Below, piece after piece: positions 2,117 to 38,726 of a stretch of DNA of 64,000 bases. The position numbers were made by a program, and so were the translations under genes. The notes under the pieces were generated by a model, which ran no database searches, was not told the origin of the DNA, and saw only the letters and a program-made list of their open reading frames with translations. How positions within the stretch are numbered: the stretch's first letter is position 1; each line of letters starts with the position of its first letter. Source of the stretch: an uncultured archaeon (lineage in GTDB: Archaea; Micrarchaeota; Micrarchaeia; Micrarchaeales; CABMGC01); NCBI GenBank assembly GCA_963752955.1, contig CAVWAD010000005.1:778-64777 (forward strand), in the 5' to 3' direction.

Positions 2117-3573
2117 GTATCTATTTAGCTCCCCTCTGAACCTCCACTAAATCGCCGCGGGCGAAAAGAATACTATTCCTTCAGTATTTGTATCCTCGGC
2201 GATCTTCTGACTGAGTATGTTACCATAGAGAAGGACATCTACGTTGCACTTTTGAAGAAAGTAGAAAAGGTTCAGGAACTTCAAAGGAACGTGGAAGAAC
2301 TCAAGAACTCTGTAGTCGAACTCCAGAGACGTCTCTGGATATACGAGAATCCGAACATCCCTTCATCGAAGAGGATACTGAAAGAGAAGAAAGACGATGA
2401 GAACCGGCCAGAAGGAAAGAAAGGCGCACCCGAAGGCCATGTTGGTGCAACCAGAGATAAGCCAAAACCGAACCGTTTCATCGACCTCAAACCGAGAGTT
2501 TGTGCGGGGTGCAACAGCCGCAACATCGAGATGACTGGAAAGGAGAAGAAGATCATAGAGGACATCAGGATAGAGAAGGTCGTCACGGAATTCACCCAGT
2601 ACAGATACCACTGCAACGACTGCGGCTGTGACCATGTAACGACGCATCCGGAACTTCCAAAGACGGGAATATTCGGGCCCACGATAACGGGTATCTGGGA
2701 AATGCTGCATTACAAAGGACACGTCCCCTTCGAGTGCCTTTCGCAGATAAGCGGGAACCTCTTCGGGGTGCCAATAACCCAGGGCGGCATGCACAACGCG
2801 ATATACCGAACGGCGCAGATATTCGAACCGACCTTCGAGGAGATAAGACAGCAGATAAGGGAGTCAAATTACGTAAGGTCGGACGAGACGTCGTATCCCT
2901 TCAACGGCCGCAACTGGTGGCTGTGGAACCTGTCGAATCACGACACGTCCCTGGTCCTCTTGAGGGACAGCAGGGGAACAGGAGTATTGAGGGAAGTGTT
3001 CGATGGGGACTTCTCAGGTATATCCAATACCGACTGCTTTTCGGCATATGACTGTTTCGGTTCGGAATCATCGAAGTGCTGGTCGCACCTTCTCGGGTTC
3101 GCGGACAAAGCGGCCGAAGAGGATGCATACGGCAAGAGAATTCGTGAGATGCTGAAAGAGATGTTCGCATACATCAAACAGGTAAAGGAGGACCACCTCG
3201 AAGGCACTCCCGAAGTTATGGATCGCATCGATGAGATGAAGGACAGGATACGTAGGTTGCGCAAGAACAAACGCAGATCTAGGATAACAGAAAGATTGGT
3301 GAAGCGGTTGCAAAAATACATTGACTCGTGGTTCACCTGCCTGGTTTACGACTTCGTGGAACCGACCAACAACGCCTCTGAACGGGACATTCGCAAGAAC
3401 GTAGTTGCACGGAACATATCTGGGCAGCACAGGAGCGTAGTTGGAACGCACTGCAGGGAGATAATGATGTCAACGATACTTACGAAGCAGAAGAACGATG
3501 TAAACGTTTTCGACTTCATACAGAGAGGCATAAGACAGTACAACTCAGCTCCCGTCGGGAGCTAAATAGATAC
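2117..3573 (+). mobile_element. IS66-family (single-ORF, ISBst12-like) insertion sequence, copy 1, 1457 bp
   Basis: Perfect 17-bp terminal IR GTATCTATTTAGCTCCC / GGGAGCTAAATAGATAC. 8-bp TSD ATTAAATT (2109-2116 and 3574-3581). Confidence 0.9.
2252..3565 (+). CDS. IS66-family transposase
   Basis: 437 aa with an N-terminal coiled coil, CxxC...CxxC zinc finger, SDETS and EPTNNASERDIR (IS66 TNN.xER motif). Identical to the ORFs at 23252 and 57371. Confidence 0.9.
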   Translation: MKKVEKVQELQRNVEELKNSVVELQRRLWIYENPNIPSSKRILKEKKDDENRPEGKKGAPEGHVGATRDKPKPNRFIDLKPRVCAGCNSRNIEMTGKEKKIIEDIRIEKVVTEFTQYRYHCNDCGCDHVTTHPELPKTGIFGPTITGIWEMLHYKGHVPFECLSQISGNLFGVPITQGGMHNAIYRTAQIFEPTFEEIRQQIRESNYVRSDETSYPFNGRNWWLWNLSNHDTSLVLLRDSRGTGVLREVFDGDFSGISNTDCFSAYDCFGSESSKCWSHLLGFADKAAEEDAYGKRIREMLKEMFAYIKQVKEDHLEGTPEVMDRIDEMKDRIRRLRKNKRRSRITERLVKRLQKYIDSWFTCLVYDFVEPTNNASERDIRKNVVARNISGQHRSVVGTHCREIMMSTILTKQKNDVNVFDFIQRGIRQYNSAPVGS

Positions 3574-7497: not shown

Positions 7498-9021
7498 ATG
7501 GTAAGCATAGACAAGCTTCAGGAGCTGAACAAGTGGTGGACAAAGGGTGCGCAATTCCCCTTTGACGACAGCGACCTCATGAAATACAACCAGATGCCAG
7601 TAAAGATAGCGCACGCAGACCTTGTCAGCCGTCTCAGGGCAGGCAGCATCGTAGTGGTCAAGGGCCCCAGGAGGGTCGGGAAAACGATATTGGCTAAGAA
7701 CGCCATATTGAAGCTGCTAAGGGAGAATGCCGCGAATGCGGATGACATACTGTACTTCTCCTTCGACTCGGTGGTGAGCGCAAGGGAGATGGACAACATG
7801 CTGCGGAATTTTCTCGCAAAACCTCACACAGGCACAGTCTACATCTTTCTTGACGAGATCCAGGCGGTCTCGGGATGGGCCGACGTGCTGCTCGGGCTCA
7901 GCAACTCCGGGCTCCTCTCGGAAGCCGCGGTCCTGCTTACGGGCTCGATTGCACACCTCATGAAGACCGAGACGCTTCCAGGGAGAGGGACCGAGGGAAA
8001 CACATATTTCCTCAGGACCGCAAGTTTCAGAACCTTTGTAAGATCGGTGCTCATGCTACTGCAGGAAAACCCCACCTATCTCAATTATGTCATGGATTAC
8101 AGGTTCACGCACGGAGAGATAGCCAACTTTCTGAAGGACATTGAAGGCACCATTGCCGGACCGGACGACGAAATATCCGCCATCCGCGACGCCGCGGTCA
8201 GAATGCAGAGGTATTTCAGGCCGCTGAGCAAGATGTTCGAGATATACCTGCTGACTGGAGGATACCCTGCCAGCATCAACGATGCGATAATTAGAGCACG
8301 GGCTAATAACACTTACGAGGAGATATACAACTACGCGAAGAGTGACGCCGCGACGCTGGCCATGAGCTCCACTGGAGATCCCCAGAAGGCAGGGCAGGTA
8401 CTTTCCGGGGTCGTGGATTACGTCGGGAACAAGGTATCCTACTCCAAGATAGCTAGAAACCTGTCCATGAACAAGAAGACGATGATAAGCTATTACTCTC
8501 GGCTCGAGAACTCGTTCGTGTTCATAAGCATCAACGGGGTCAAGCCGTTAGAGGGGAAGCTCGTGGAATCGGAAGTGAAGAAGATCTACTTCTCAGACGT
8601 GTTCACGCACTACGCCGTCGGTGCCGTCCAGACAGGCAAGCAGGGACTGGAATACTCCAAGGAGCTCATCAATTCCTCCAAGGTTGGGGCCGTAGTGGAG
8701 GAGATAGTCGCGGGTCATCTAATAAGAGTAAAAGAATTAGATCCGATGCGTCCTTACAAGACATACCTCAGATTCTATGATGGAAGAAAAGAACTGGATT
8801 TCATATACAAAGGCGTCGGTGCAGCGGGGAAGGAAGAATTGGTCGGAATAGAAGTGAAATACCAGACTGAAATTTCTCAAGGTGACCTGAATCCCGTCGA
8901 AGGCATCTCCAAGTACATACTTCTGACAAAGACAGCGGACGTTGAGAGGAAAGACAGATCCGTTTCTATTCCGGTGTGCGTTTTCCTGGCGATGCTCCGC
9001 AGCTCCGACAACGATCTCTGA
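7498..9021 (+). CDS. AAA+ ATPase of the AAA_14/DUF4143 (COG1373) type
   Basis: VVVKGPRRVGKTILAK (Walker A), IFLDEIQAVSGW (Walker B), long C-terminal DUF4143-like region. Confidence 0.75.
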   Translation: MVSIDKLQELNKWWTKGAQFPFDDSDLMKYNQMPVKIAHADLVSRLRAGSIVVVKGPRRVGKTILAKNAILKLLRENAANADDILYFSFDSVVSAREMDNMLRNFLAKPHTGTVYIFLDEIQAVSGWADVLLGLSNSGLLSEAAVLLTGSIAHLMKTETLPGRGTEGNTYFLRTASFRTFVRSVLMLLQENPTYLNYVMDYRFTHGEIANFLKDIEGTIAGPDDEISAIRDAAVRMQRYFRPLSKMFEIYLLTGGYPASINDAIIRARANNTYEEIYNYAKSDAATLAMSSTGDPQKAGQVLSGVVDYVGNKVSYSKIARNLSMNKKTMISYYSRLENSFVFISINGVKPLEGKLVESEVKKIYFSDVFTHYAVGAVQTGKQGLEYSKELINSSKVGAVVEEIVAGHLIRVKELDPMRPYKTYLRFYDGRKELDFIYKGVGAAGKEELVGIEVKYQTEISQGDLNPVEGISKYILLTKTADVERKDRSVSIPVCVFLAMLRSSDNDL

Positions 9022-9964
9022 AGGCCATCCACGACCACTTCCCCCACCTCCTGGTGCCCTCCCTCTTTATCCTCGCGATCGCGTCCCTGCCTTCCCCGGG
9101 CTCCCTGCCGAAGAAGAGCTTGCCGAAGACGTCGGCGGACCAGACGTCGATGGGGAACCCGCCGTGCGGGTTTATGATGTCCGCCGAGTAGTCGCCTATG
9201 CCCGGGAGCTCCAGCAGCCTCTCCTTCGCCTCCTCCGGGCCGAGCCCCTCCAGCTCCTCGAGCGTCGGGAACCCCTCCCTGCCCAGCTTCCTCGCGAGCT
9301 GGACCACGCGCTTCGCCCCGTACCCGAGCCTGCACCTCCCTGCGACTTCCGCCGGGGAGAGCCTTGCTATCCTTTCCGGCAGCGGCCAGACGGGTATCCT
9401 CCTCCCGTCGAACTCCGCCGTCTCGCCGTACCTGCTTATGAAGCACGACATCATCTCGTTGCTGCGCTTGAGCGGCGCCATCTGCAGTAGTATGGACAGC
9501 ACCGCATCGGGGAATACATCCACCGAGGAGGTGTTGTGCATGCCGTAGAGGTCCCTGACCGCATGCCTCAGGATGCGGTCCTTGGCGGCCATGCGGTAGA
9601 ACTCCCCGAGGTCCTCGTCCGCGCCGATGTTGTGGGCCAGCGACCTCCTCATCTCCCCGAACGAGACCCGCTCGGGCTTCTCCTTCAGGAATATCCTCAC
9701 CGCTATTCTCGGATGTTTAACTGTGCCCTTTGAAGATAGCCTGATCCCGGCCAGGACGCCTCCCAGGTGCGTGGCGGTCCACATTGTGCCCTTCTCGTAG
9801 ACCTCGAAGGGCGTGAAGAGCGGCCAGCCCGCCGGCTTGTGGATCGTAAGCTCGAAGTCGTACGGGGGCAAGGGACGCATCTCGTACGCGAAAGAGCTGG
9901 AGAGCTTCATAATGTCTCTTATACAAGACATCAATATACAAATATTGTCTTTCTGACAAGACAT
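8966..9964 (-). CDS. HhH-GPD superfamily DNA glycosylase (AlkA/3-methyladenine glycosylase II-like)
   Basis: LLELPGIGDYSADII...D hairpin-helix-hairpin/GPD motif. The likely real start is M19 (9910). Its 3' end overlaps the convergent ATPase gene by ~55 nt. Confidence 0.7.
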   Translation of the reverse strand: MSCQKDNICILMSCIRDIMKLSSSFAYEMRPLPPYDFELTIHKPAGWPLFTPFEVYEKGTMWTATHLGGVLAGIRLSSKGTVKHPRIAVRIFLKEKPERVSFGEMRRSLAHNIGADEDLGEFYRMAAKDRILRHAVRDLYGMHNTSSVDVFPDAVLSILLQMAPLKRSNEMMSCFISRYGETAEFDGRRIPVWPLPERIARLSPAEVAGRCRLGYGAKRVVQLARKLGREGFPTLEELEGLGPEEAKERLLELPGIGDYSADIINPHGGFPIDVWSADVFGKLFFGREPGEGRDAIARIKREGTRRWGKWSWMAFRDRCRSCGASPGKRTPE

Positions 9965-10671: not shown

Positions 10672-11670
10672 GATAAAGTCAATATTTCGTCATCTCTATC
10701 TTTCGTGCTAGATGGATAAGGTCTAAGAGCTTGTTCTTACCAAGAGACAAATTTAGTTCTGCCGCTTCGGCAGGGGTCCTACCACCAAGACTATTGTGCG
10801 GTGTGACATAGTTGTATATGAATTTGCAAAGGGTCAATGTTGTAGATGCGCCTTGGTGCGTCTGGAATACGTTAAGGGCTTCGACTCTTCTGCCAATCTC
10901 TCTATTATGCCGTTCCACTGGATTGTTATTGTGTTCCCGTCCATATTTCTTGCACGCAATCGGAACGCCAAATTTAAGTTCCGTAACCCCATAGAACAGT
11001 TTCTTCCACACAATTTTATAGATGGCAAATTTATCCGAGACGAATGTTATCAGGTGCCTTTTCCCAAAAGGTTTCGTTCGCTCTTTTCGATAGCGTTCCA
11101 ATATCTGGGCATAGCACCAAACCTTTATGACTCTTAGAAAGGCAAGGCAGGCAGCGATTGTCCTATCAACGACAACATCATCCGCAAGGACAAACTTGGT
11201 CTTGTTATCGAGGGCAGTCAACCTAAATTCCCAATGGCCCTTCACTCTTACATATTTTTCGTCGTAATGGATGCGGCCCTTAATCTTTGGAACACCAAAT
11301 CTCGTCTCGGTTTTTTTAAAAGATAGGCATACTTTACCACCCAGTTTCGGATTGTCCACCTTGAAACCTCAACATCGTCATGCTGCGATAGATGTTTTTG
11401 GATCTTTTTCAAGGACGCTCCATCTGCGTATTCGTCTAAGGCACGGACAATATCTTTAGGGTTGAAATGCATCCATTTGAATCCGTCATCAATTACAAAC
11501 CAGGTGTTGCAGTTGTGGCAGAAGAATTTCTGCTTCGCGCCTGAAGTATTGTAGCGCATACCTTTCTTCGCAATATCCTTAGAGCCGCAGTGGTCGCAAA
11601 TAGTCACCCAATCATCCTATGATGATATGGAAACAATAGTATTTATAGATGACGTTTTCTTGACTTTATC
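10672..11670 (-). mobile_element. 999-bp IS (IS6/IS240-like DDE motifs, IS1-like organisation), copy a
   Basis: IR GATAAAGTCAATATTTCGTCATC vs rc GATAAAGTCAAGAAAACGTCATC. 9-bp TSD CCTTTGTTT (10663-10671 and 11671-11679). Confidence 0.9.
10679..11607 (-). CDS. transposase in two overlapping frames (119-aa ZF/HTH ORF and 226-aa DDE ORF) joined by a predicted -1 frameshift at A7 (11311-11317)
   Basis: ORF A has CDHC...CHNC. ORF B has HYDEKYVRVKG, FVSDKFAIY and NNNPVERHNREIGRR. The slippery A AAA AAA C is in the zero frame of ORF A. The predicted fusion is ~309 aa. Confidence 0.8.
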
Positions 11671-27652: not shown

Positions 27653-29593
27653 TTGGAAGCTATGGGGAAAAAATGCTTAATTAAGAAGGAGTCATTGATA
27701 CTAAAATATCTGTACGACTCACTCAATGTTAAAAATAAGTCAAGAAGTAGTAATTTTTACAAAAGGATATATCCTTTATTTGATTCTAAACCTGATAAAA
27801 TCATAAAGACTTACATAAATAAGCCGATAAGTAAATCTGCATTTGTTAAAATGCTTAAAAACAGGAAATATCCCTTTAGAGTTGGCTATATACAAAAAAC
27901 ACCGACGAAGGTATTAGTTGGAGTAATAGTATATCAAGGCGAGGGAGTAATTGGCAAAACAATGAAGAGAGGAAAGGTATTGCTGAGCAAAAATTATGAG
28001 AAAAACATAACTTTATTTAAAATGATCGATACAGATTTGTTAATAATCGGTAACAAAGGGAGGCTTATAAGAAAAATAAATAAATACTTTAGTTGCCCCT
28101 TTGTGGAAGAGAGCAGAACGGTAGTCTCGATAGATCCAAATACGATGTTAAAGGACTTATTGGACGTAAAAAACAAAAATAACAAAATTGATATAAGCCG
28201 AATAGAATACTTAGATATTGAAAGAGGAAAAAGATTAAGGGTAAAGGCATATTCAGACGAAGGAACTGTTCTCGACAAGTTTTTAAAACAGAATTTCAAG
28301 AATGAAAACACAAAATATGAATTGACACAGATCCTTGCAATAAGTTTTACAGACTATAAAGAAATCGCAATACTAAAAATCACTAGATTGAATGAAAATC
28401 AATATTTGCTGAAATGGAAAAGCCATAACTCATTGAGTTTGAAAATATCTAACCTCTATGGATTGAAGGAAAATTCAGACTCGTTATTATTGGATTCTAA
28501 AGATGATAAAAAATTATTAAATGATTTATTTCGGCATGAAACGCTTTCTTATTATGCTTCAAAGAACATATACAATCGCATACTTGGAGACTATGTTGAT
28601 TACGTATACGTCCATAACAATAAAGTTAGATGGGACTATCAAAACATAATAACTAAACTAAATGAAATCATTACCGCATCTGGCTACAAAACTAATTACA
28701 TAAATCTTACAAGAAAATACGATTTTTATTTGCCCACGAGCCAAAAGTCTACGCCATATTCAAAGATGATAAGAATTGTTAAGGATGGCAAGATAGCGCA
28801 GCACATTCTATTAGATCATGAAAAATTATACGAATGTGGAAATGAAACTACAATCAAACAATTTTTTGTGTTTTCGCCATTTCTAATATTAGATTTTAGG
28901 AAAACTGCAAATCCTAATTTCGATTACCTTGCTTATAATGATTACATAATAAATAGTGGTGAATTTTTATACAATTTAAAGCACGATCCGAGTAGAATAT
29001 TGGAGATCCTAACTAAATTAGGTAAGGATACTATAGAAAAATTCGAATTAAATGATCATTACAAGGTTGCATCAGAGTTATTAAATAATATCGACAGTTT
29101 TAAAATGCTCAATTCTGAACAGAAAGGCAAATTGTTCGAAGCAGTTTGCTTTATTATCCTATCTAAAATGTTTATAACGAAGAGGCTCGGCGAAAGCCTA
29201 AAACCCGATGGGAAATTCATAATCGATGATGAAAAAATAGTTTACGATGCAAAAAATATAAGCTCCAAAACAAGTTTTATCAAAAGCGTAACTAGATATG
29301 GAAAAGTAAAGGACATAGGCTATATCATCAAAGAAAATACTAAAAAATATATTTATATTGCAACACATTTGGATGATAATGAATTTGAGGAAGTCAAAAG
29401 GAAAATAAATAACGTTGTTTCCGACTGCACCGTTTCTGCAATAACCATTGATGCAATTAAGGATTTAGTAAGACTTTACGACCCAAGAAAACTTGATCGT
29501 GAAAAACTTAAGAATAAGATATTCTCTGGGGCAGTAACGAGGAGTCTTTCAGAGAAAGACGTACTAGTTGAGGAATCTAAATTGTCAAACTAA
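27653..29593 (+). CDS. 646-aa protein with C-terminal PD-(D/E)xK (FokI/Mrr-like) nuclease domain and uncharacterised N-terminal ~480 aa
   Basis: GKLFEAVCFIILSKMF...LKPDGKFIIDDEKIVYDAKNIS (P518-D519 ... D532-A-K534). No P-loop or methylase motif was seen. Very AT-rich. Confidence 0.55.
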   Translation: MEAMGKKCLIKKESLILKYLYDSLNVKNKSRSSNFYKRIYPLFDSKPDKIIKTYINKPISKSAFVKMLKNRKYPFRVGYIQKTPTKVLVGVIVYQGEGVIGKTMKRGKVLLSKNYEKNITLFKMIDTDLLIIGNKGRLIRKINKYFSCPFVEESRTVVSIDPNTMLKDLLDVKNKNNKIDISRIEYLDIERGKRLRVKAYSDEGTVLDKFLKQNFKNENTKYELTQILAISFTDYKEIAILKITRLNENQYLLKWKSHNSLSLKISNLYGLKENSDSLLLDSKDDKKLLNDLFRHETLSYYASKNIYNRILGDYVDYVYVHNNKVRWDYQNIITKLNEIITASGYKTNYINLTRKYDFYLPTSQKSTPYSKMIRIVKDGKIAQHILLDHEKLYECGNETTIKQFFVFSPFLILDFRKTANPNFDYLAYNDYIINSGEFLYNLKHDPSRILEILTKLGKDTIEKFELNDHYKVASELLNNIDSFKMLNSEQKGKLFEAVCFIILSKMFITKRLGESLKPDGKFIIDDEKIVYDAKNISSKTSFIKSVTRYGKVKDIGYIIKENTKKYIYIATHLDDNEFEEVKRKINNVVSDCTVSAITIDAIKDLVRLYDPRKLDREKLKNKIFSGAVTRSLSEKDVLVEESKLSN

Positions 29594-29644
29594 GCAATCT
29601 CTTTGTACAAAACACTTAAATAGCGTAAATGTGCCCTTATCAAT

Positions 29645-30391
29645 ATGTCAAAATTATTACCTGCGGATAACGCAAAGAAAGCTACTAGGTTAAAGCGCAT
29701 CCGTTTTCTCGATACTTATTCTATAGCATTTGGAGGCCGCAGTAAAAACTCGAAGATAATCTTCGTTGAGAATGGAACAAACGAACACTATACTATTGCC
29801 GTTTACGACAAAGGAGATAAAGCAATATTCGATATCCATAAGACGGAAAGAAAAAAAGATTCGGTAAAGTACACACCCTTTTTGCAAATGACCATCGACA
29901 TTATGAAGCTTAAAAATATTGCTGAAACACGCGGAAACGAATTACAGGAAAAAACGAACGCTGTATTGAATAATTTACTGAAGCCAGTAACCACAGAGGA
30001 ACTAGTAGATTTAAACTACCCCGCATTCCCTCTACGGCCTGCCCCACTAAATGCGATGGCATACAATACACGGGAAGTTGAGATTTCAAACCCGGAAGAC
30101 ATGCAAAACAAATTCGGCATACTGAAAAATACTAATACACTCATTCAGCATGATTTTACTGCAGCTATGCTTATGCCTGAAGATATTAGAAGATGGAAAG
30201 TCGTGATTAGAAGAGACGGCACATATTATATGTGCAATGCAAATGACCTCATTTTTAGATATTTTAAGGTAATTCTAAAAATATTTGATGGTGCAATAAG
30301 TATAGAAGATAAAGTGAATGGTACGACAATCTCATTTGCTGAGATGATACGTATTCTAGAACCTGAGTACTATGAAAAAATAAATAATTAA
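29645..30391 (+). CDS. hypothetical protein (248 aa), co-directional partner of the 646-aa nuclease
   Basis: Clean ORF 51 nt downstream of the 27653-29593 ORF with the same AT-rich composition. No motif recognised. Confidence 0.5.
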   Translation: MSKLLPADNAKKATRLKRIRFLDTYSIAFGGRSKNSKIIFVENGTNEHYTIAVYDKGDKAIFDIHKTERKKDSVKYTPFLQMTIDIMKLKNIAETRGNELQEKTNAVLNNLLKPVTTEELVDLNYPAFPLRPAPLNAMAYNTREVEISNPEDMQNKFGILKNTNTLIQHDFTAAMLMPEDIRRWKVVIRRDGTYYMCNANDLIFRYFKVILKIFDGAISIEDKVNGTTISFAEMIRILEPEYYEKINN

Positions 30392-31290
30392 TGTACTGTT
30401 GAATTTTCATGGAGTTGGTAAAAGAAAAATCCTATAGTTGTAGCAGCATTTACAATTAATGTTGCATAAATTGGATCTGGTGGTTCGGTCCCAATATCTT
30501 TTCCATGACCTGTTCCATACGCGTTACGGAATTCTCCAATGTTCTGAATAATGAAGGACATTGCTCCTAATACTTTATCTACCTTGTCCTCTGTGACTTT
30601 ATCTCGCTTAATGCTGCCACAATCAAACAATTCTGTACGAGTTAACCGTGTCAGTTCAGGTAAGTTCTCTTTTCCAGATAACTGTATTCCTCTCTCTTTA
30701 AGCACCGTTTTACATATCGTCTCTATAAACTCTTTAGAAGTGCCAATTGCAAGAGCTGGGTCGGTTTCAATATAGGACTTCATTCTTACTATCTCTTTTT
30801 GGAGATGCTCAGAACTTAGTTGGTTCGCTATATTTCGAAGTTCTTCAAGAGATTCAATAGTTGCTGGAAAAAGTCCTTCGGCCTCGTATCTAATATTTCC
30901 AAATTCTGTTTTCTTCTCCACTAATTTATATCCATCTTCCCCCAATCTTCGATTTAAAGCAGCAAGTAATTTGTTAGTTTCATCTTCATTTCTACGCACA
31001 GTCGGATGCAACATCTCTGCCAAGAAATTTAAAAATTGCTCATCCGAACAATGCTTCAGATTAAACCTATTATCATCATATATCCAATCTTCAGCCCAAT
31101 CTTTATTGAATACTCTATGCTGTCTAATATCCCCGCCAGCATTTTTGAACCGAGAGTCATACGATGGAAGACTATCAAGGTCATATATCCTGGAAAGAAA
31201 ATCAACCTCATCTAATGCCCCATTCCAGATTATATTCTCCGATCTTAGAAAATGGATAATATCCATTCGCGTTCTATTTGATAGCGTCAT
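30388..31290 (-). CDS. AbiJ-like abortive-infection protein (AbiJ N-terminal domain plus Abi_C/HEPN C-terminal domain)
   Basis: WNGALDEVDFLSRIYDLDSLPSYDSRFKNAGGDIRQHRVFNKDWAEDW...FLAEMLHPTVR, then DPALAIGTSKEFIETICKTVL...IGEFRNAYGTGHG. The ORF opens at 31356; MTLSNRT at 31290 is the likely start. Confidence 0.65.
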   Translation of the reverse strand: MTLSNRTRMDIIHFLRSENIIWNGALDEVDFLSRIYDLDSLPSYDSRFKNAGGDIRQHRVFNKDWAEDWIYDDNRFNLKHCSDEQFLNFLAEMLHPTVRRNEDETNKLLAALNRRLGEDGYKLVEKKTEFGNIRYEAEGLFPATIESLEELRNIANQLSSEHLQKEIVRMKSYIETDPALAIGTSKEFIETICKTVLKERGIQLSGKENLPELTRLTRTELFDCGSIKRDKVTEDKVDKVLGAMSFIIQNIGEFRNAYGTGHGKDIGTEPPDPIYATLIVNAATTIGFFFYQLHENSTVH

Positions 31291-31408
31291 AAGTATCTCA
31301 CATTTAAATCTACAGATCAACTTAGTATTTATTCTCCTCACACATACATTAGACATATTCTGTATTTTTAAAGTTATTAGCTTGTGCTTTCTTTCGGAAA
31401 AATATCGG

Positions 31409-32512
31409 TCATTTTGCGTCCCCTAGAAAGTCTTCTATCGGGATAGTCTTAAGTTTGTCTTGCAAATATTTCCTAATGTCATCGTCTTCAATAGCCAATA
31501 TTTCGGAATCGTATCCCACGACTTCATTCAGTTTTTTGGCAACGAGTTTAGGCCAATAACTCATACTCATTTGAATGATCGACGCGTCTATTTCTTTAGC
31601 TAAGCTTTCTATTCTACTCTTCTTTCCAATTCTATCAACAATTACTAGGGTTGCCATATAGTGTTCATGTTGTGCATATTCCATTTTTCGCTCGAACCTG
31701 CTTACTTTGTCTAGCGATATCTCTGGATTGCCTCTTCCAATAAAGCCAATGTCAAATCGTACTCCCTTTCCCAGCGTAAAGAGCAAAGTGGCATCACTTT
31801 CTCGTTTATCTGCCCTTTCAGATAACCAGAACACTTTCTCCGTGGCAGTATTTTTGTTCTTTTCAACGTAAGTAAAACCCAATATTTGAAGCAATGATCC
31901 CAGAATCAAACGTTCGAATAGTTTTCCGTAAGCTGATTTTTCAGATCCCCTAATAGTGAGCGTCTGAGCTCCCACGGCACTCATAATAAACATTAGTTTT
32001 TCCCAATTCAATTTGCCATTTCGTAAACTTCCGACATTCAATTCACAATTGAGCTCTCCAAATTCGCTTTCGAATTCCCTAGCCGTCTCTTTGATTCCTT
32101 CTGCAAATTCGGAAACGTAGTGGTCTATTCTATTAGGATCGTCACGTAGTATATTCTGCACTGCCTTGTCAGTTAGGCCAAGTAGCCAATTAAGTATCCA
32201 GCCTTCTTCTTTCTTCAATTTGCCTTCCTTCAAGCTCCTGCTAGCCCATTTTATTACTTTTTCTACGAACGCAGGATCTCTATTACAACCCTGCAAGTAC
32301 ATTAGAAACAAGCCCCCGTTGGCAATCGCAAGTTTTTTTCTTGTTATACTTTCCGTAGATTCTCTAATATTTTCGCCACAAAGGACATCCAAAATCACTC
32401 CCCGTATTGTTTCGACGCCCACATCTCTCACAAATTCACGGCCCTTCGCGGACAATACTCGCTTTGATCGCGCAGGGAACAGTTCAAAGAAATTCTCGGT
32501 GGTGGTTGTCAT
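31409..32512 (-). CDS. putative type II restriction endonuclease (partner of adjacent methyltransferase)
   Basis: Its start abuts the stop of the methylase (TAGATG). It has the same strand and composition. GKLFERLILG...ESDATLLF...FDIGFIGRGNPEISLDK is compatible with a PD-(D/E)xK core. Family not identified. Confidence 0.5.
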   Translation of the reverse strand: MTTTTENFFELFPARSKRVLSAKGREFVRDVGVETIRGVILDVLCGENIRESTESITRKKLAIANGGLFLMYLQGCNRDPAFVEKVIKWASRSLKEGKLKKEEGWILNWLLGLTDKAVQNILRDDPNRIDHYVSEFAEGIKETAREFESEFGELNCELNVGSLRNGKLNWEKLMFIMSAVGAQTLTIRGSEKSAYGKLFERLILGSLLQILGFTYVEKNKNTATEKVFWLSERADKRESDATLLFTLGKGVRFDIGFIGRGNPEISLDKVSRFERKMEYAQHEHYMATLVIVDRIGKKSRIESLAKEIDASIIQMSMSYWPKLVAKKLNEVVGYDSEILAIEDDDIRKYLQDKLKTIPIEDFLGDAK

Positions 32513-33685
32513 CTAATCCAACTTGCTTTGTGCAAATATTTTTTGAGGTTTTGACGTTCCAATCCAGTTAACGCCTGCAGTTTTATCGTGAAGCCATTCG
32601 GGGATTCTGTTTTTAATCACATCGACGTATTGCGGATTCGTATCAATAACAAAGAATCGTCGTTTTAATAAGGCTGCTGCATGAGCAACAGTACCTATTC
32701 CTGCGAAAGGATCAAGAACTACGTCGTTTACGAACGAATAATACTGTATTACTTTTTCAGCCAACTCTAAAGGAAATATCGCCGGATGCTTCTTGTCATG
32801 GGCTGGTTTAATGCGCCAGACGTTAGTTCTTTCATAATTCGAGTCTATCTTCGATTCGGCCAAGATTTTCCTGTCGGGATAATTTCGTATATACCAGTCA
32901 ATTAACTTATCGCTTTTCTTTCTATAAACCATCACATATTCCGTTATTGGTACTGCCTTATATTGCATAGGATTTCTATCTGCGGCAAATCGTCTTCCGC
33001 GTCCAGTAGCCCATCCCGCGCCTTCTGGTTTTACCCACTGAATATCGTCAATAAATTCATAACCTTCTTCGATGAATATTCTATGAATGTCGAAAGGAAC
33101 GGCAAGTCTCTTTGACGATTCATTTCGATTTGTGCGTCTGATTAAGACAGGAGATACGTTCATAACAAAGAATCTTCCATCGCCCAATACTCTGTAACAT
33201 TGCTGAATCACTTTTCTCATCTTAAGCAAGTATTCCTCATATGATACGAAATCAGAATATTCTGGCCTGGCATTGTAATACGGCGGCGATGTAAAAATCA
33301 GATCTACTGATTCCGCAGGCATGTCCTGAAGTACGCATTCACTATCTCCAAGAGCTACTGTATTTCTTAGAGCAGATAAGATGTATTTTTCCTTCAAATG
33401 TTTCTTCTCACTTTTACTAATGTTCCTCCCCAAGAGACGTTTTTCAAGAATTTCTTTTTTCGTAGTCTTGGTATTCACTATGAGAGAAGTTTTAGCATCA
33501 AGGATGACCTCCCCCACACCGGTTTTTTCTTTACTTAGTAGGGGGACTCTCCAAACCGCATATCTATCATCCATTTCTGGTAAACCGTATGCAATTACTT
33601 TCTCTAATTCCATCTCCTTAACATAAGTCTTAGCAATTTCTTTAGCTTGATTCACCTTATTAACCAAGTAATTATTTTTATTCAA
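32513..33685 (-). CDS. DNA methyltransferase, beta-class N4-cytosine/N6-adenine type (SPPY)
   Basis: DLIFTSPPYYNA (motif IV) precedes VLDPFAGIGTVAHAA (motif I). The apparent start is TTG, preceded by a 38-aa upstream ORF with overlapping stop. Confidence 0.85.
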   Translation of the reverse strand: MNKNNYLVNKVNQAKEIAKTYVKEMELEKVIAYGLPEMDDRYAVWRVPLLSKEKTGVGEVILDAKTSLIVNTKTTKKEILEKRLLGRNISKSEKKHLKEKYILSALRNTVALGDSECVLQDMPAESVDLIFTSPPYYNARPEYSDFVSYEEYLLKMRKVIQQCYRVLGDGRFFVMNVSPVLIRRTNRNESSKRLAVPFDIHRIFIEEGYEFIDDIQWVKPEGAGWATGRGRRFAADRNPMQYKAVPITEYVMVYRKKSDKLIDWYIRNYPDRKILAESKIDSNYERTNVWRIKPAHDKKHPAIFPLELAEKVIQYYSFVNDVVLDPFAGIGTVAHAAALLKRRFFVIDTNPQYVDVIKNRIPEWLHDKTAGVNWIGTSKPQKIFAQSKLD

Positions 33686-34634: not shown

Positions 34635-35204
34635 TCACTTCTTTTTCACTCCCACGAGTGTGTCATAGTAGGCGTCGAATCCCCCTATCTGCGACCTTAT
34701 GCTCTTGCATCTGAATGGCTTTTTGCAGAGCATCTTCCTATACTCGGGAGTGTCGCGCAGGGCTATGACGACGTTGCCCTTCATTGTCTTAGATCTTTCG
34801 ATTATCTTTGGTGCAGCCAGGTCACAGTTTCCCTTATATTTGCTGAAGCACTTGTCCCAAGGCGGGTCAAAGAAGAAGGTCGTGTCTTTCGAGTCTTCCT
34901 GTTTGACCGTCTTGCGCCAGTCCTGGCACTTTGATATCAGCACACCTTTCTCTGGCAGTTTGATCTTCTCCTTCTGCCACTTGGTCGCGGCGCAGTTTTT
35001 GTCACCCAGCACGGCGCGCTCTATGCGACCATCTTTCCTCACGTTCTGGTAGGTGTATGCGTGGCCCGCGAAGGGCTCGACGAACACCGGCGTCTTCGGC
35101 ACGAGCTTCGCAATTTCGGGCGAAGCCCACCGCAATCCGCCGTAACTATTGTGCTGGTGGCACTTTTCTTTCTCATTCCTCCCACAAGTATTCGATGTTG
35201 TCAT
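34635..35204 (-). CDS. small Dam-like (D12-class) DNA adenine methyltransferase
   Basis: YGGLRW, VFVEPFAGHA (motif I-like) and FFFDPPW (motif IV DPPY-like). Its 189 aa is shorter than cellular Dam. Confidence 0.55.
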   Translation of the reverse strand: MTTSNTCGRNEKEKCHQHNSYGGLRWASPEIAKLVPKTPVFVEPFAGHAYTYQNVRKDGRIERAVLGDKNCAATKWQKEKIKLPEKGVLISKCQDWRKTVKQEDSKDTTFFFDPPWDKCFSKYKGNCDLAAPKIIERSKTMKGNVVIALRDTPEYRKMLCKKPFRCKSIRSQIGGFDAYYDTLVGVKKK

Positions 35205-35557
35205 TTGGTTCCCTCGGTAATCTTCTTGTACTTTCGCCTTGCTTCCAAGATTTCAGGTTTCAGGCGGTCGCACAGGAGATCATTGCGTATGAGAATCAGG
35301 ATGCCTTTTTCTTCATCGTAAATCATGACAAGCGCGTTATCCTTCTGCGGATCTAGCCTGAGCGCTTCCCTCACTATGGCTGGCACGTAGACTCTCGCGG
35401 TGTTGCCGGTGTACTGTATCCTGCCCAGTTCGACCGTCAGACCGACTTCTTCGTATATGGGCTGGCCCCTACAATCTCTCTTCATTCGGATCATCGTTTT
35501 GGACGCGGATGGCACACTTCTTACCCTCTTTCTTTGCTGCCTTCGTCTGTGTCTCAT
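35201..35557 (-). CDS. AbrB/SpoVT-like regulator
   Basis: ARVYVPAIVREALRL. The stop overlaps the methylase start (ATGA). The true start may be M22 or M25. Confidence 0.45.
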   Translation of the reverse strand: MRHRRRQQRKRVRSVPSASKTMIRMKRDCRGQPIYEEVGLTVELGRIQYTGNTARVYVPAIVREALRLDPQKDNALVMIYDEEKGILILIRNDLLCDRLKPEILEARRKYKKITEGTK

Positions 35558-37399: not shown

Positions 37400-38587
37400 T
37401 CACTTGTTTTCCAACACCCCAAGAATCGCATCCCTGCTCTGCGGGTCAATCTTCTCCATCAGCAGGTCGACCGCTCGCGTCATTTTGTCCAGCTTCTGTT
37501 TCACTGACTCTAGCTCGTTTACCTCCTCCACCGGACTCACGTCCAGGGGGCTGTGGCACTTGCTGCAGTACTTGGCAGTCATCTCGTTGACTTCCTCGCA
37601 CTTGTAGCAGACCTTTATGGTGAGCCTCGGCTTCGCCGGCTCGCCCCTGCCGATCGTTATGCCGTTCGCCTTCATGACCGCGTCGTCCACGTCCTTGCCG
37701 CTCAGGTGGACGTAGACGGCGGCCATCTGGCTGCCGCCGGTCCAGCCAAAGTACTTCTTGAGCTGCTGCTCGGTCATGCTGTTCGCGTAGACGCTCGCCC
37801 TGCTGTGCCTGAACAGGTGCGGGTGTATGCGCTTCCTTATGCCCGTCCTCTCCTTCAGGTCAGAGAGCAGTTTCCTCACGTTCGGATAGTCGAAGGGATT
37901 CCCGTGGGACGTGAGGAACATGGCGGATTCCGGCGGCAGGCCCCTGCCGCGCTCGTTGAGGTAGTTGGACAGGTAAGGCACCGAGAAGACGAGAGTCACC
38001 CTCCTCTTGCCCGTCTTGCCGTCCACCATCGCGTAGCTGGGGCTTTCCGCGTTCAGGACGATGTCCCTTACCTTGAGGTTCAACAGCTCCCCCACGCGCA
38101 TCCCCGTGTCGTACAGGAGCGATATTATGGCCCTGTCCCTCTGGCTCCTGCACGCGTTTATGAGCCCGGCCACCTCGTCCTCCGTCAGGAGCTCCTCTGG
38201 CAGCTTCATGGACTCCATCTGGTCCACCTTGATCCACTTGACCAGGGCAGGGTAGTCGTCCGCCGAATAGAGCCACTTGTAGAAGCTCTTCAGGGTCTGC
38301 TTTATCTTCCTCAGGCTGTTCACGGCCTTGCCGCTCTTGTTGAGGTACAGAACAAGGCGCTCTATGTCCTCCTTCGTCGCCTTCCTGGCGTCCTTCCCGA
38401 GGTAGGGGAAGACGGCGCGCAGTTCCCTTATCACCCTCGCGACGGTCTGCGGCTTACGGTTGAGCAGCCCCAGCTTCGCGCCGAACGCGAGGACGTAGCC
38501 CCTGTTGGGCTCGGAGAGTTCCTCCGCTACCTTCCTGATCTGCATGGCCAGCACGTATTCGCCTTTGTGCAGGTAGTCCCTTTTCAT
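37400..38587 (-). CDS. tyrosine recombinase / integrase with C-terminal zinc ribbon
   Basis: LLYDTGMRVGEL (box I R), HLFRHSRA ... AAVYVHL (H-x-x-R ... Y), then KVCYKCEEVNEMTAKYCSKCHSPL. Confidence 0.9.
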   Translation of the reverse strand: MKRDYLHKGEYVLAMQIRKVAEELSEPNRGYVLAFGAKLGLLNRKPQTVARVIRELRAVFPYLGKDARKATKEDIERLVLYLNKSGKAVNSLRKIKQTLKSFYKWLYSADDYPALVKWIKVDQMESMKLPEELLTEDEVAGLINACRSQRDRAIISLLYDTGMRVGELLNLKVRDIVLNAESPSYAMVDGKTGKRRVTLVFSVPYLSNYLNERGRGLPPESAMFLTSHGNPFDYPNVRKLLSDLKERTGIRKRIHPHLFRHSRASVYANSMTEQQLKKYFGWTGGSQMAAVYVHLSGKDVDDAVMKANGITIGRGEPAKPRLTIKVCYKCEEVNEMTAKYCSKCHSPLDVSPVEEVNELESVKQKLDKMTRAVDLLMEKIDPQSRDAILGVLENK

Positions 38588-38653: not shown

Positions 38654-38667
38654 CAGCCCTGAGAGGG
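38654..38667. repeat. tRNA-proximal att core
   Basis: CAGCCCTGAGAGGG, identical to 27235-27248. It overlaps the 3' end of tRNA-Thr. Confidence 0.55.
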
Positions 38668-38726
38668 AATTGAACCCTCGACCTCCTGTTTACAAGACAG
38701 GCGCTCTACCACTGAGCTACCAGGGC
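38655..38726 (-). tRNA. tRNA-Thr (anticodon UGU)
   Basis: Hand-folded cloverleaf: GCCCTGG TA GCTC AGTGGT AGAGC G CCTGT CTTGTAA ACAGG AGGTC GAGGG TTCAATT CCCTC TCAGGGC U. No encoded CCA. Confidence 0.9.

Follow-up and report, generated by a model that had tools for sequence, protein, structure and literature searches.

Two adjacent AT-rich genes, here called A and B, lie among defence genes on an apparent integrative element in a 64,000-nucleotide (nt) stretch of contig CAVWAD010000005.1, from an uncultured archaeon of the Micrarchaeota; this whole stretch is referred to as the window. An earlier reading of the DNA letters (the sequence-only reading) had proposed that the two genes, encoding a nuclease and a partner, form a previously undescribed antiviral system. 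The question raised by the locus is whether A works together with B and, if it does not, what A does. Comparison with related loci does not support a two-gene immune system made up of A and B. Our preferred interpretation, held with slightly better than even confidence, is that A is a self-contained, mobile single-gene restriction-type endonuclease, probably type IV-like, and that B is not part of it. The two genes and their spacer are:

27662..29593, + strand: gene A, 643 amino acids (aa) counted from a conserved ATG, taken from the open reading frame (ORF) list and identical to database protein P0001.
29645..30391, + strand: gene B, 248 aa, a member of a small family without known relatives outside it.
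29594..29644, + strand: the A–B spacer, 51 nt, with a TATA-like TTAAATA at 29616–29622, centred ~26 nt before the ATG of B.

The sequence-only reading described two co-directional, AT-rich genes 51 nt apart, and the ORFs at 27653..29593 and 29645..30391 agree with this; their GC contents are 0.305 (A) and 0.361 (B), with the surrounding genome at ~0.55–0.6. Its length of 646 aa for the first gene holds for the ORF as called, from a TTG at 27653, but not for the start of the protein, as the database protein and all homologues begin at the ATG at 27662 (MGKK...). Residue numbers given here are those of P0001; the earlier TTG-based numbering runs 3 higher, and D516 and K531 correspond to its D519 and K534. 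The ratio of non-synonymous to synonymous substitution rates (dN/dS) of A is 0.08–0.09 against close homologues, and this strong purifying selection marks A as a real gene. Neither A nor B has a paralogue elsewhere in the window.

When 5.8 billion protein clusters were searched with the A sequence and, separately, with a family profile, only 11 clusters were returned, all 635–651 aa long except for one 419-aa fragment. The family is tiny, and most of its contigs are short. Besides the window's own element there are eight A loci (numbered with the prefix L), which represent seven distinct contexts because L008 and L011 have the same downstream gene; L012 and L013 are copies of the window element and stand outside the eight. 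The contexts are:

L001: integrase, methyltransferase with MjaV, A, then small ORFs.
L005: AbiEii and a MazG-like gene upstream; convergent unknown genes, PDDEXK_1 and GmrSD downstream.
L008 and L011: A, then a type IIG MmeI/Eco57I-like enzyme.
L009: convergent type III-like ResIII and methyltransferase.
L010: Mrr, DUF6602, a 136-aa ORF, A, a 293-aa ORF and a methyltransferase.
L014: DDE_3 transposase fragment upstream; the contig stops 55 nt past A.
L016: 120-aa, HEPN and 234-aa genes downstream, with archaeal housekeeping-type genes around.

The sole constant across these loci is A itself, usually amid defence genes (AbiJ, AbiE, GmrSD, Mrr, HEPN proteins and type II, IIG and III restriction-modification (R-M) systems). 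A hidden Markov model (HMM) of the B family, run with all filters off, matched no ORF in the eight other A loci, and an HMM of A retrieved nothing in the three other B-family loci examined (L018, L019–21 and L022). The sequence-only reading had looked to co-occurrence of the two homologues in other genomes, and this was seen only in copies of the same element (L012 and L013); the proposal of a two-gene system is not borne out. What follows A varies from locus to locus: in some contexts small ORFs or a convergent gene, in others a type IIG enzyme, a convergent type III-like pair, the 293-aa ORF with a methyltransferase, or HEPN genes. All-against-all BLAST of the neighbours revealed no conserved partner of A; the only similarities were clade-specific or generic, namely an AAA_14/DUF4143 ATPase in two loci, the 136-aa ORF, restricted to one clade, and methyltransferases that belong to a common superfamily.

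Could A and B nevertheless form a genuine pair in this element, with B serving as regulator, immunity factor or sensor and other members of the A family having non-homologous partners? The two genes run in the same direction with similarly low GC contents, no terminator-like hairpin was found on the + strand of the spacer, both are of unknown function within defence cargo, and most A homologues are followed by some co-directional ORF. But the downstream ORFs of the A contexts are mutually dissimilar, apart from the type IIG gene common to L008 and L011; the L005 homologue has convergent neighbours only; and homology to the closest A locus stops right after the A stop codon. The TTAAATA element would in addition place B at a spacing that fits an independent leaderless archaeal transcript, although such motifs are common in AT-rich DNA. 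A pairing of A with B conflicts more directly with the comparative data than any other alternative considered, and we regard it as very unlikely. On these comparisons, B is an unrelated mobile-element gene that lies next to A in this one element, and is not its partner.

Two of the recurring neighbours merit description in their own right. The ATPase gene lies within 2.5 kb of A in the window (25605–27149, + strand) and in L001 (10399–11628); the two copies are 66% identical, and the gene order is different. Members of this ATPase family are often found in archaeal islands. The ~136-aa ORF overlaps the A start codon in its clade (L010 2694–3104, L008 4539–4925 and L011 2–175) and is absent from the window and the other A loci; through GRADLVARKGKFRVAIEYDHHE, it looks like a small PD-(D/E)xK/Vsr-type nuclease motif.

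The closest locus encodes a protein with 86% aa identity to A, at a synonymous divergence (dS) of 0.75. Nucleotide similarity to this locus extends from ~40 nt before the A ATG, at a conserved TTTAAATATTAAAAAT box, to ~12 nt past the stop codon. Because the similarity is bounded at the edges of A, the conserved, mobile unit is one gene with its promoter, for which there is one candidate:

27624..27641, + strand: AT-rich TATA-box-like element GCTTTAAATATTAAAAAT, ~30 nt upstream of the A ATG.

The window and the closest homologue's locus (L014/L015) both keep the GCTTTAAATATTAAAAAT stretch, and the sequence further upstream is unrelated. Its putative role as the A promoter is assigned from the known position of archaeal TATA boxes. 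A is a rare, undescribed putative nuclease, and it moves from genome to genome as one gene.

A sharply bounded mobile cassette would also suit a gene that serves the mobile element itself, as a homing, integration or partition-related endonuclease, with no part in defence. The islands that hold A in the window and L001 contain an integrase, and in L014 A lies beside the DDE_3 transposase fragment. However, no transposase or integrase is consistently linked to A, its flanks are overwhelmingly defence genes and not element backbone, and L016 has A amid housekeeping-type genes with no recombinase in view. We consider a role of this kind extremely unlikely.

A scan of genome contigs returned just the copy already known, viral contig scans yielded nothing for A or B, and tblastn against plasmids and phages yielded nothing. 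The literature search found no paper on the A family, and an archaeal-defence survey makes no mention of FokI. One A homologue (62% identity; L009/L023, CAZPPL010000023.1) lies on a 7.4-kb, 26%-GC contig from the bin of an uncultured gammaproteobacterial metagenome-assembled genome (MAG); unless this contig is mis-binned, the cassette crosses domains. Archaeal-type neighbours are present in L016 (Cdc6/Orc1 and CDC48) and L001 (the MjaV-type enzyme). The window's own genes gave no taxonomic placement of the host; the annotations of relatives, together with neighbouring genes, would suggest an archaeon of Thermoplasmatota-like type.

The nuclease assignment comes from the C-terminal ~160 aa of A, and the protein divides as follows:

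27662..29113, + strand: N-terminal region of A (aa 1–484), the presumed target-recognition or sensor part.
29114..29590, + strand: predicted C-terminal FokI-type PD-(D/E)xK domain of A (aa 485–643), from Pfam PF09254 matches and hhalign.
29138–29140 (E493), 29207–29209 (D516), 29246–29248 (D529) and 29252–29254 (K531), + strand: candidate catalytic residues of A, invariant, with coordinates checked.

The FokI-like PD-(D/E)xK core seen in the sequence-only reading was recovered: the motifs GKLFE, LKPDG and VYDAKN are present, and E493, D516, D529 and K531 are invariant in 10/10 family members, including P0012 at 33% identity. All seven C-terminal domains scanned matched Pfam PF09254 (FokI_cleav_dom) at sub-threshold scores, with a best expectation value (E) of 8.6e-6, and they matched no other nuclease family in Pfam. 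The isolated domain of the window protein scored 23.3 bits (E 4.7e-5) and full-length A 19 bits. For hhalign, a FokI sequence self-consistent with the published residue numbers was used; LGESLKPDG of A fell on LGGSRKPDG of FokI and VYDAK on IVDTK, which pairs D516, D529 and K531 with FokI D450, D467 and K469. Since the Pfam matches fall below the threshold and come from members that are mutually related, the evidence that the C terminus is a FokI-type PD-(D/E)xK cleavage domain is good but not conclusive.

The N-terminal ~480 aa, in which no P-loop, methylase or helicase motif had been recognised earlier, gave no match in Pfam, NCBIfam, PADLOC, PHROGs or PDB sequences. At E ≤10, no Pfam family was matched by more than one of the seven members' N-terminal regions, and no FokI recognition-domain family was detected by Pfam in this part of A. 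Profile–profile comparison revealed no internal repeats. PDB sequence and profile searches with full-length A, the C-terminal domain and the N-terminal region gave chance-level matches only. The AlphaFold2 (AF2) model of A, built from a 9-sequence alignment, is weak, with a predicted local distance difference test score (pLDDT) of 59. Foldseek on AlphaFold models, which the sequence-only reading had suggested, retrieved nothing with E <0.16 for this weak model; the result for B is given below. In the model, aa 8–90 are predicted to form a helix, helix, strand, helix and hairpin, a succession compatible with a winged helix. No family in PADLOC-DB v2.0.0 was matched by A or B at E ≤1, in keeping with the earlier failure to match either gene to a named defence system. 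The sequence-only reading had allowed that the 248-aa gene might prove an unrelated neighbour and the larger protein a known type IIS/IV enzyme; the former is what was found, whereas A as a whole is in no described family. Its effector is familiar, and so is its layout.

A second invariant charged cluster, E387, D411, R413 and K414, lies within FSPFxILDFRK (window 28820–28903) and might act as a second active site or contact DNA. Two-domain type IIS enzymes of the Mva1269I type have a larger N-terminal part followed by a FokI-like C-terminal catalytic domain, and the acidic and basic residues of this cluster recall them. In A, however, the cluster is off the canonical PD-(D/E)xK spacing, AF2 models it poorly, and no EcoRI-like domain similarity was detected.

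Whether a methyltransferase accompanies A bears on its probable mode of action, and in the window the genes that follow B are:

30388..31356, − strand: AbiJ-like gene (AbiJ_NTD3, E 5.5e-47; Abi_C, E 8.8e-14), convergent with B and overlapping it by 4 nt.
31409–32512, − strand: CfrBI-like endonuclease (RE_CfrBI, E 9e-23).
32513–33685, − strand: N4/N6 methyltransferase (N6_N4_Mtase, E 1e-43).

A is without a methyltransferase of its own in any locus. The N4/N6 methyltransferase of the window abuts the CfrBI-like endonuclease and is therefore already paired, which upholds the earlier statement that A and B lack a cognate methyltransferase. At other loci, every methyltransferase in the vicinity either has an endonuclease partner of its own or forms part of a type IIG fusion. 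None was called beside A in L005, where the only R-M-like gene is a cut type IIG-like one ~5 kb away, and none was found in the 11 kb of flank in L016 (3.1 kb upstream and 8 kb downstream). The borders of the A cassette take in no methyltransferase.

A mechanism can be proposed in which the N-terminal ~480 aa presumably select the target and a helical linker joins them to the FokI-type domain (E493, D516, D529-x-K531). As this domain would contain one active site, by analogy with FokI a second copy would be required for a double-strand break, and the cleavage domain would have to pair with another to cut both strands. The most likely route is that A cuts only DNA carrying a foreign modification and so spares its host. 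A moves and persists without a methyltransferase, and a type IIS enzyme arriving in this way would kill the host; modification dependence is thus the simplest explanation, and we infer a type IV-like activity. Like the type IV enzymes of the Mrr/MspJI family, A is a solitary predicted nuclease with a presumed N-terminal reader and a C-terminal PD-(D/E)xK domain, and it occurs in defence islands near R-M genes (in L010, an Mrr gene is two genes from A). Unlike them, it has no detected Mrr_N, Mrr_cat, SRA, EVE or McrB-type domain, and it is twice the size of Mrr.

The same layout would be expected of a classical type IIS endonuclease that cuts unmodified DNA at a fixed offset, in a host protected in trans by another methyltransferase. 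A has the domain order of FokI, with a large N-terminal recognition part before a C-terminal cleavage domain of ~160–200 aa, and the aligned core LGxSxKPDG plus (V/Y)D(T/A)K. In the window and in six of the eight other loci, there is a methyltransferase, free-standing or as part of an R-M enzyme, within ~6 kb of A, and by BLAST the cut gene at the edge of L005 resembles a type IIG enzyme. These nearby enzymes, however, differ in class (small N4/N6 type II, type IIG fusions and type III-like) and each has its own nuclease, and L016 lacks one in its 11 kb of available flank. The cassette travels without a methyltransferase, which for a true type IIS enzyme would be lethal on arrival, and the N-terminal 480 aa are dissimilar to FokI recognition domains. 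We judge a type IIS activity improbable.

Alternatively, A could be an infection-triggered nuclease of the abortive-infection type, whose N-terminal region would sense a viral protein or the infected state, instead of a DNA modification, and whose C-terminal domain would cleave DNA non-specifically. This would be consistent with a solitary gene lacking a methyltransferase, with the Abi-type neighbours (AbiJ in the window, AbiE and the MazG-like gene in L005, HEPN in L016) and with an N-terminal region unlike known DNA-binding or modification-reader domains. But no NTPase, sensor or oligomerisation domain of the sort typical for these systems was recognised in A, there was no PADLOC match, and the possible winged-helix pattern at aa 8–90 would better suit direct DNA binding. 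We think this no likelier than a type IIS enzyme.

Several observations weigh against the interpretation of A as a solitary, type IV-like endonuclease. No SRA, EVE/YTH, Mrr_N or McrB-N reader domain was detected in the seven N-terminal regions (Pfam, E ≤10), so that the missing methyltransferase is the sole argument for a type IV mechanism. Both FokI_cleav_dom scores lie under the Pfam gathering threshold of 25 bits, and the hhalign probability for the FokI alignment is 19%. The pLDDT is <50 for aa 454–548; AF2 left the nuclease core unfolded, and the restriction endonuclease-like fold thus lacks structural support. A and B are co-directional, 51 nt apart and of similar composition with no clear terminator, and their co-transcription in this element is possible. 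Finally, the comparison comprises just eight other A loci (seven contexts), in one of which, L014, 55 nt are available downstream of A.

A and B had been described as defence cargo on an integrative element, and the AbiJ-like gene, the CfrBI-type R-M genes and the following features agree with that description:

37400–38587, − strand: tyrosine integrase (Phage_integrase, E 2e-24), at the right end of the integrative element.
38655–38726, − strand: tRNA-Thr(TGT), at the right end of the integrative element.
27235..27248, + strand: candidate left attachment (att) site, a 14-nt copy CAGCCCTGAGAGGG of the tRNA-Thr 3' end (38654–38667).

The third-codon-position GC content (GC3) of this integrase is 0.88. 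The att-like 14-nt pattern occurs exactly twice in the window (0.02 matches expected), which suggests that A and B are held in an integrated element of ~11.4 kb. We consider this support moderate, because the pattern was picked after the fact.

Other parts of the element and the window were also of interest. A 31-nt direct repeat (27201–27231 and 27245–27275, 84% identical) with AGTACGGTTCCCCA brackets the att-like copy at 27235–27248, and may belong to the integration site or to arm-type binding sites. Just upstream of A is a GC-rich 71-aa ORF (27337–27552, + strand, GC3 0.79), which occupies the same place in L012 (the L013 sequence is cut at this point). Neither Pfam nor PHROGs gave a match for it; its sequence (LVTVPREITRWKRIGKGTLVRW) looks AbrB/SpoVT-like, and within the element backbone it could serve as an antitoxin-type gene or a regulator. 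A 189-aa ORF (34635–35204, − strand) weakly matches D12-class (Dam-like) adenine methyltransferases in their N-terminal part (E 5e-5), and this ORF may have been truncated or split. The adjoining 118-aa ORF (35201–35557, − strand) has a 40%-identical relative in the B-family locus L022. The window as a whole seems unusually rich in insertion-sequence copies, to judge by recurring ORFs of identical length: a 437-aa IS66-type ORF three times (2252–3565, 23252–24565 and 57371–58684), a 332-aa IS110-type ORF twice (8966–9964 and 19627–20625) and a 226-aa DDE-type ORF four times (10679–11359, 21645–22325, 58772–59452 and 60225–60905).

What, then, is B? It was said earlier to contain no recognisable motif, and B has no match in Pfam, NCBIfam, PADLOC or PHROGs, nor any PDB profile match, alone or as an alignment. 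A word-indexed search with B returned B alone, and a metagenome scan found the P0013-type contig only. Exhaustive phmmer against 1.84 billion representatives retrieved nine distant relatives at 25–33% identity, of which seven are 226–250 aa long and matched over most of their length and two are partial. H48, T50, D63, H65, T67 and P129 are invariant in the family, and the invariant His, Asp and Thr residues suggest a catalytic or ligand-binding site. The AF2 model of B is good (pLDDT 80; predicted template modelling score (pTM) 0.62) and shows a six-stranded N-terminal β-sheet, a long helix and a second α/β part. Foldseek of this model against the PDB and BFVD retrieved nothing with E <0.03; Pur-alpha/Whirly-like folds and AFV1 ORF157 were among the low-scoring matches and were not taken as evidence.

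The two invariant H-x-T motifs of B (H48-x-T50 and H65-x-T67) recall the double H-x-T/S signature of the 2H phosphoesterases (LigT/CPDase). In 2H enzymes, the H-x-T/S motifs lie in two separate lobes, whereas those of B are 17 residues apart on successive predicted strands (aa 47–55 and 59–70). As the motif layout differs in this way and no 2H structure was retrieved by Foldseek, B was not filed as a 2H phosphoesterase; nor was there a Pfam match to one.

The relatives of B point to mobile elements. One of them, P0017, for which the sources name Thermoplasmatales or Thermoplasmatota MAGs, is encoded in an integrated element rich in genes without known relatives, at a distance of 2.5 kb from an integrase, and this integrase is 37% identical to that of the window. 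The B-family locus L022 and the window element have the orf118-like gene in common. The common integrase-type and orf118-like genes place B in the gene pool of related integrative elements. In two B-family loci, the gene adjoins homologous proteins (L018 406–1533, − strand, 375 aa; L022 3804–4589, + strand, 261 aa), which are 70% identical over 212 aa and differ in orientation. They have no Pfam match and no counterpart in the window, and in this branch of the B family they may represent a genuine partner.

A bolder reading, which we hold to be rather unlikely, is that A may found a new single-gene immune nuclease family, combining an invader sensor or modified-DNA reader of new fold with a FokI-type cutter and spreading across distant hosts as a promoter-plus-gene cassette. 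Separately, B may be the first of a new-fold His/Asp/Thr family of archaeal integrative elements, possibly with a role in defence or counter-defence.

The negative result on the pair is useful in itself: defence-island adjacency was insufficient here to define a system, and the apparent partner came from a mobile-element gene pool. B is left as a minor curiosity, a confident model without a structural neighbour, and A as a rare putative nuclease whose presumed recognition region is uncharted. Should A prove to be an active solitary endonuclease, it would bring a new recognition module to a FokI-type cutter and would be a possible source of new DNA-recognition or modification-reading specificity. 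Its activity would also matter for catalogues of defence genes in hosts whose repertoire is largely uncharacterised.

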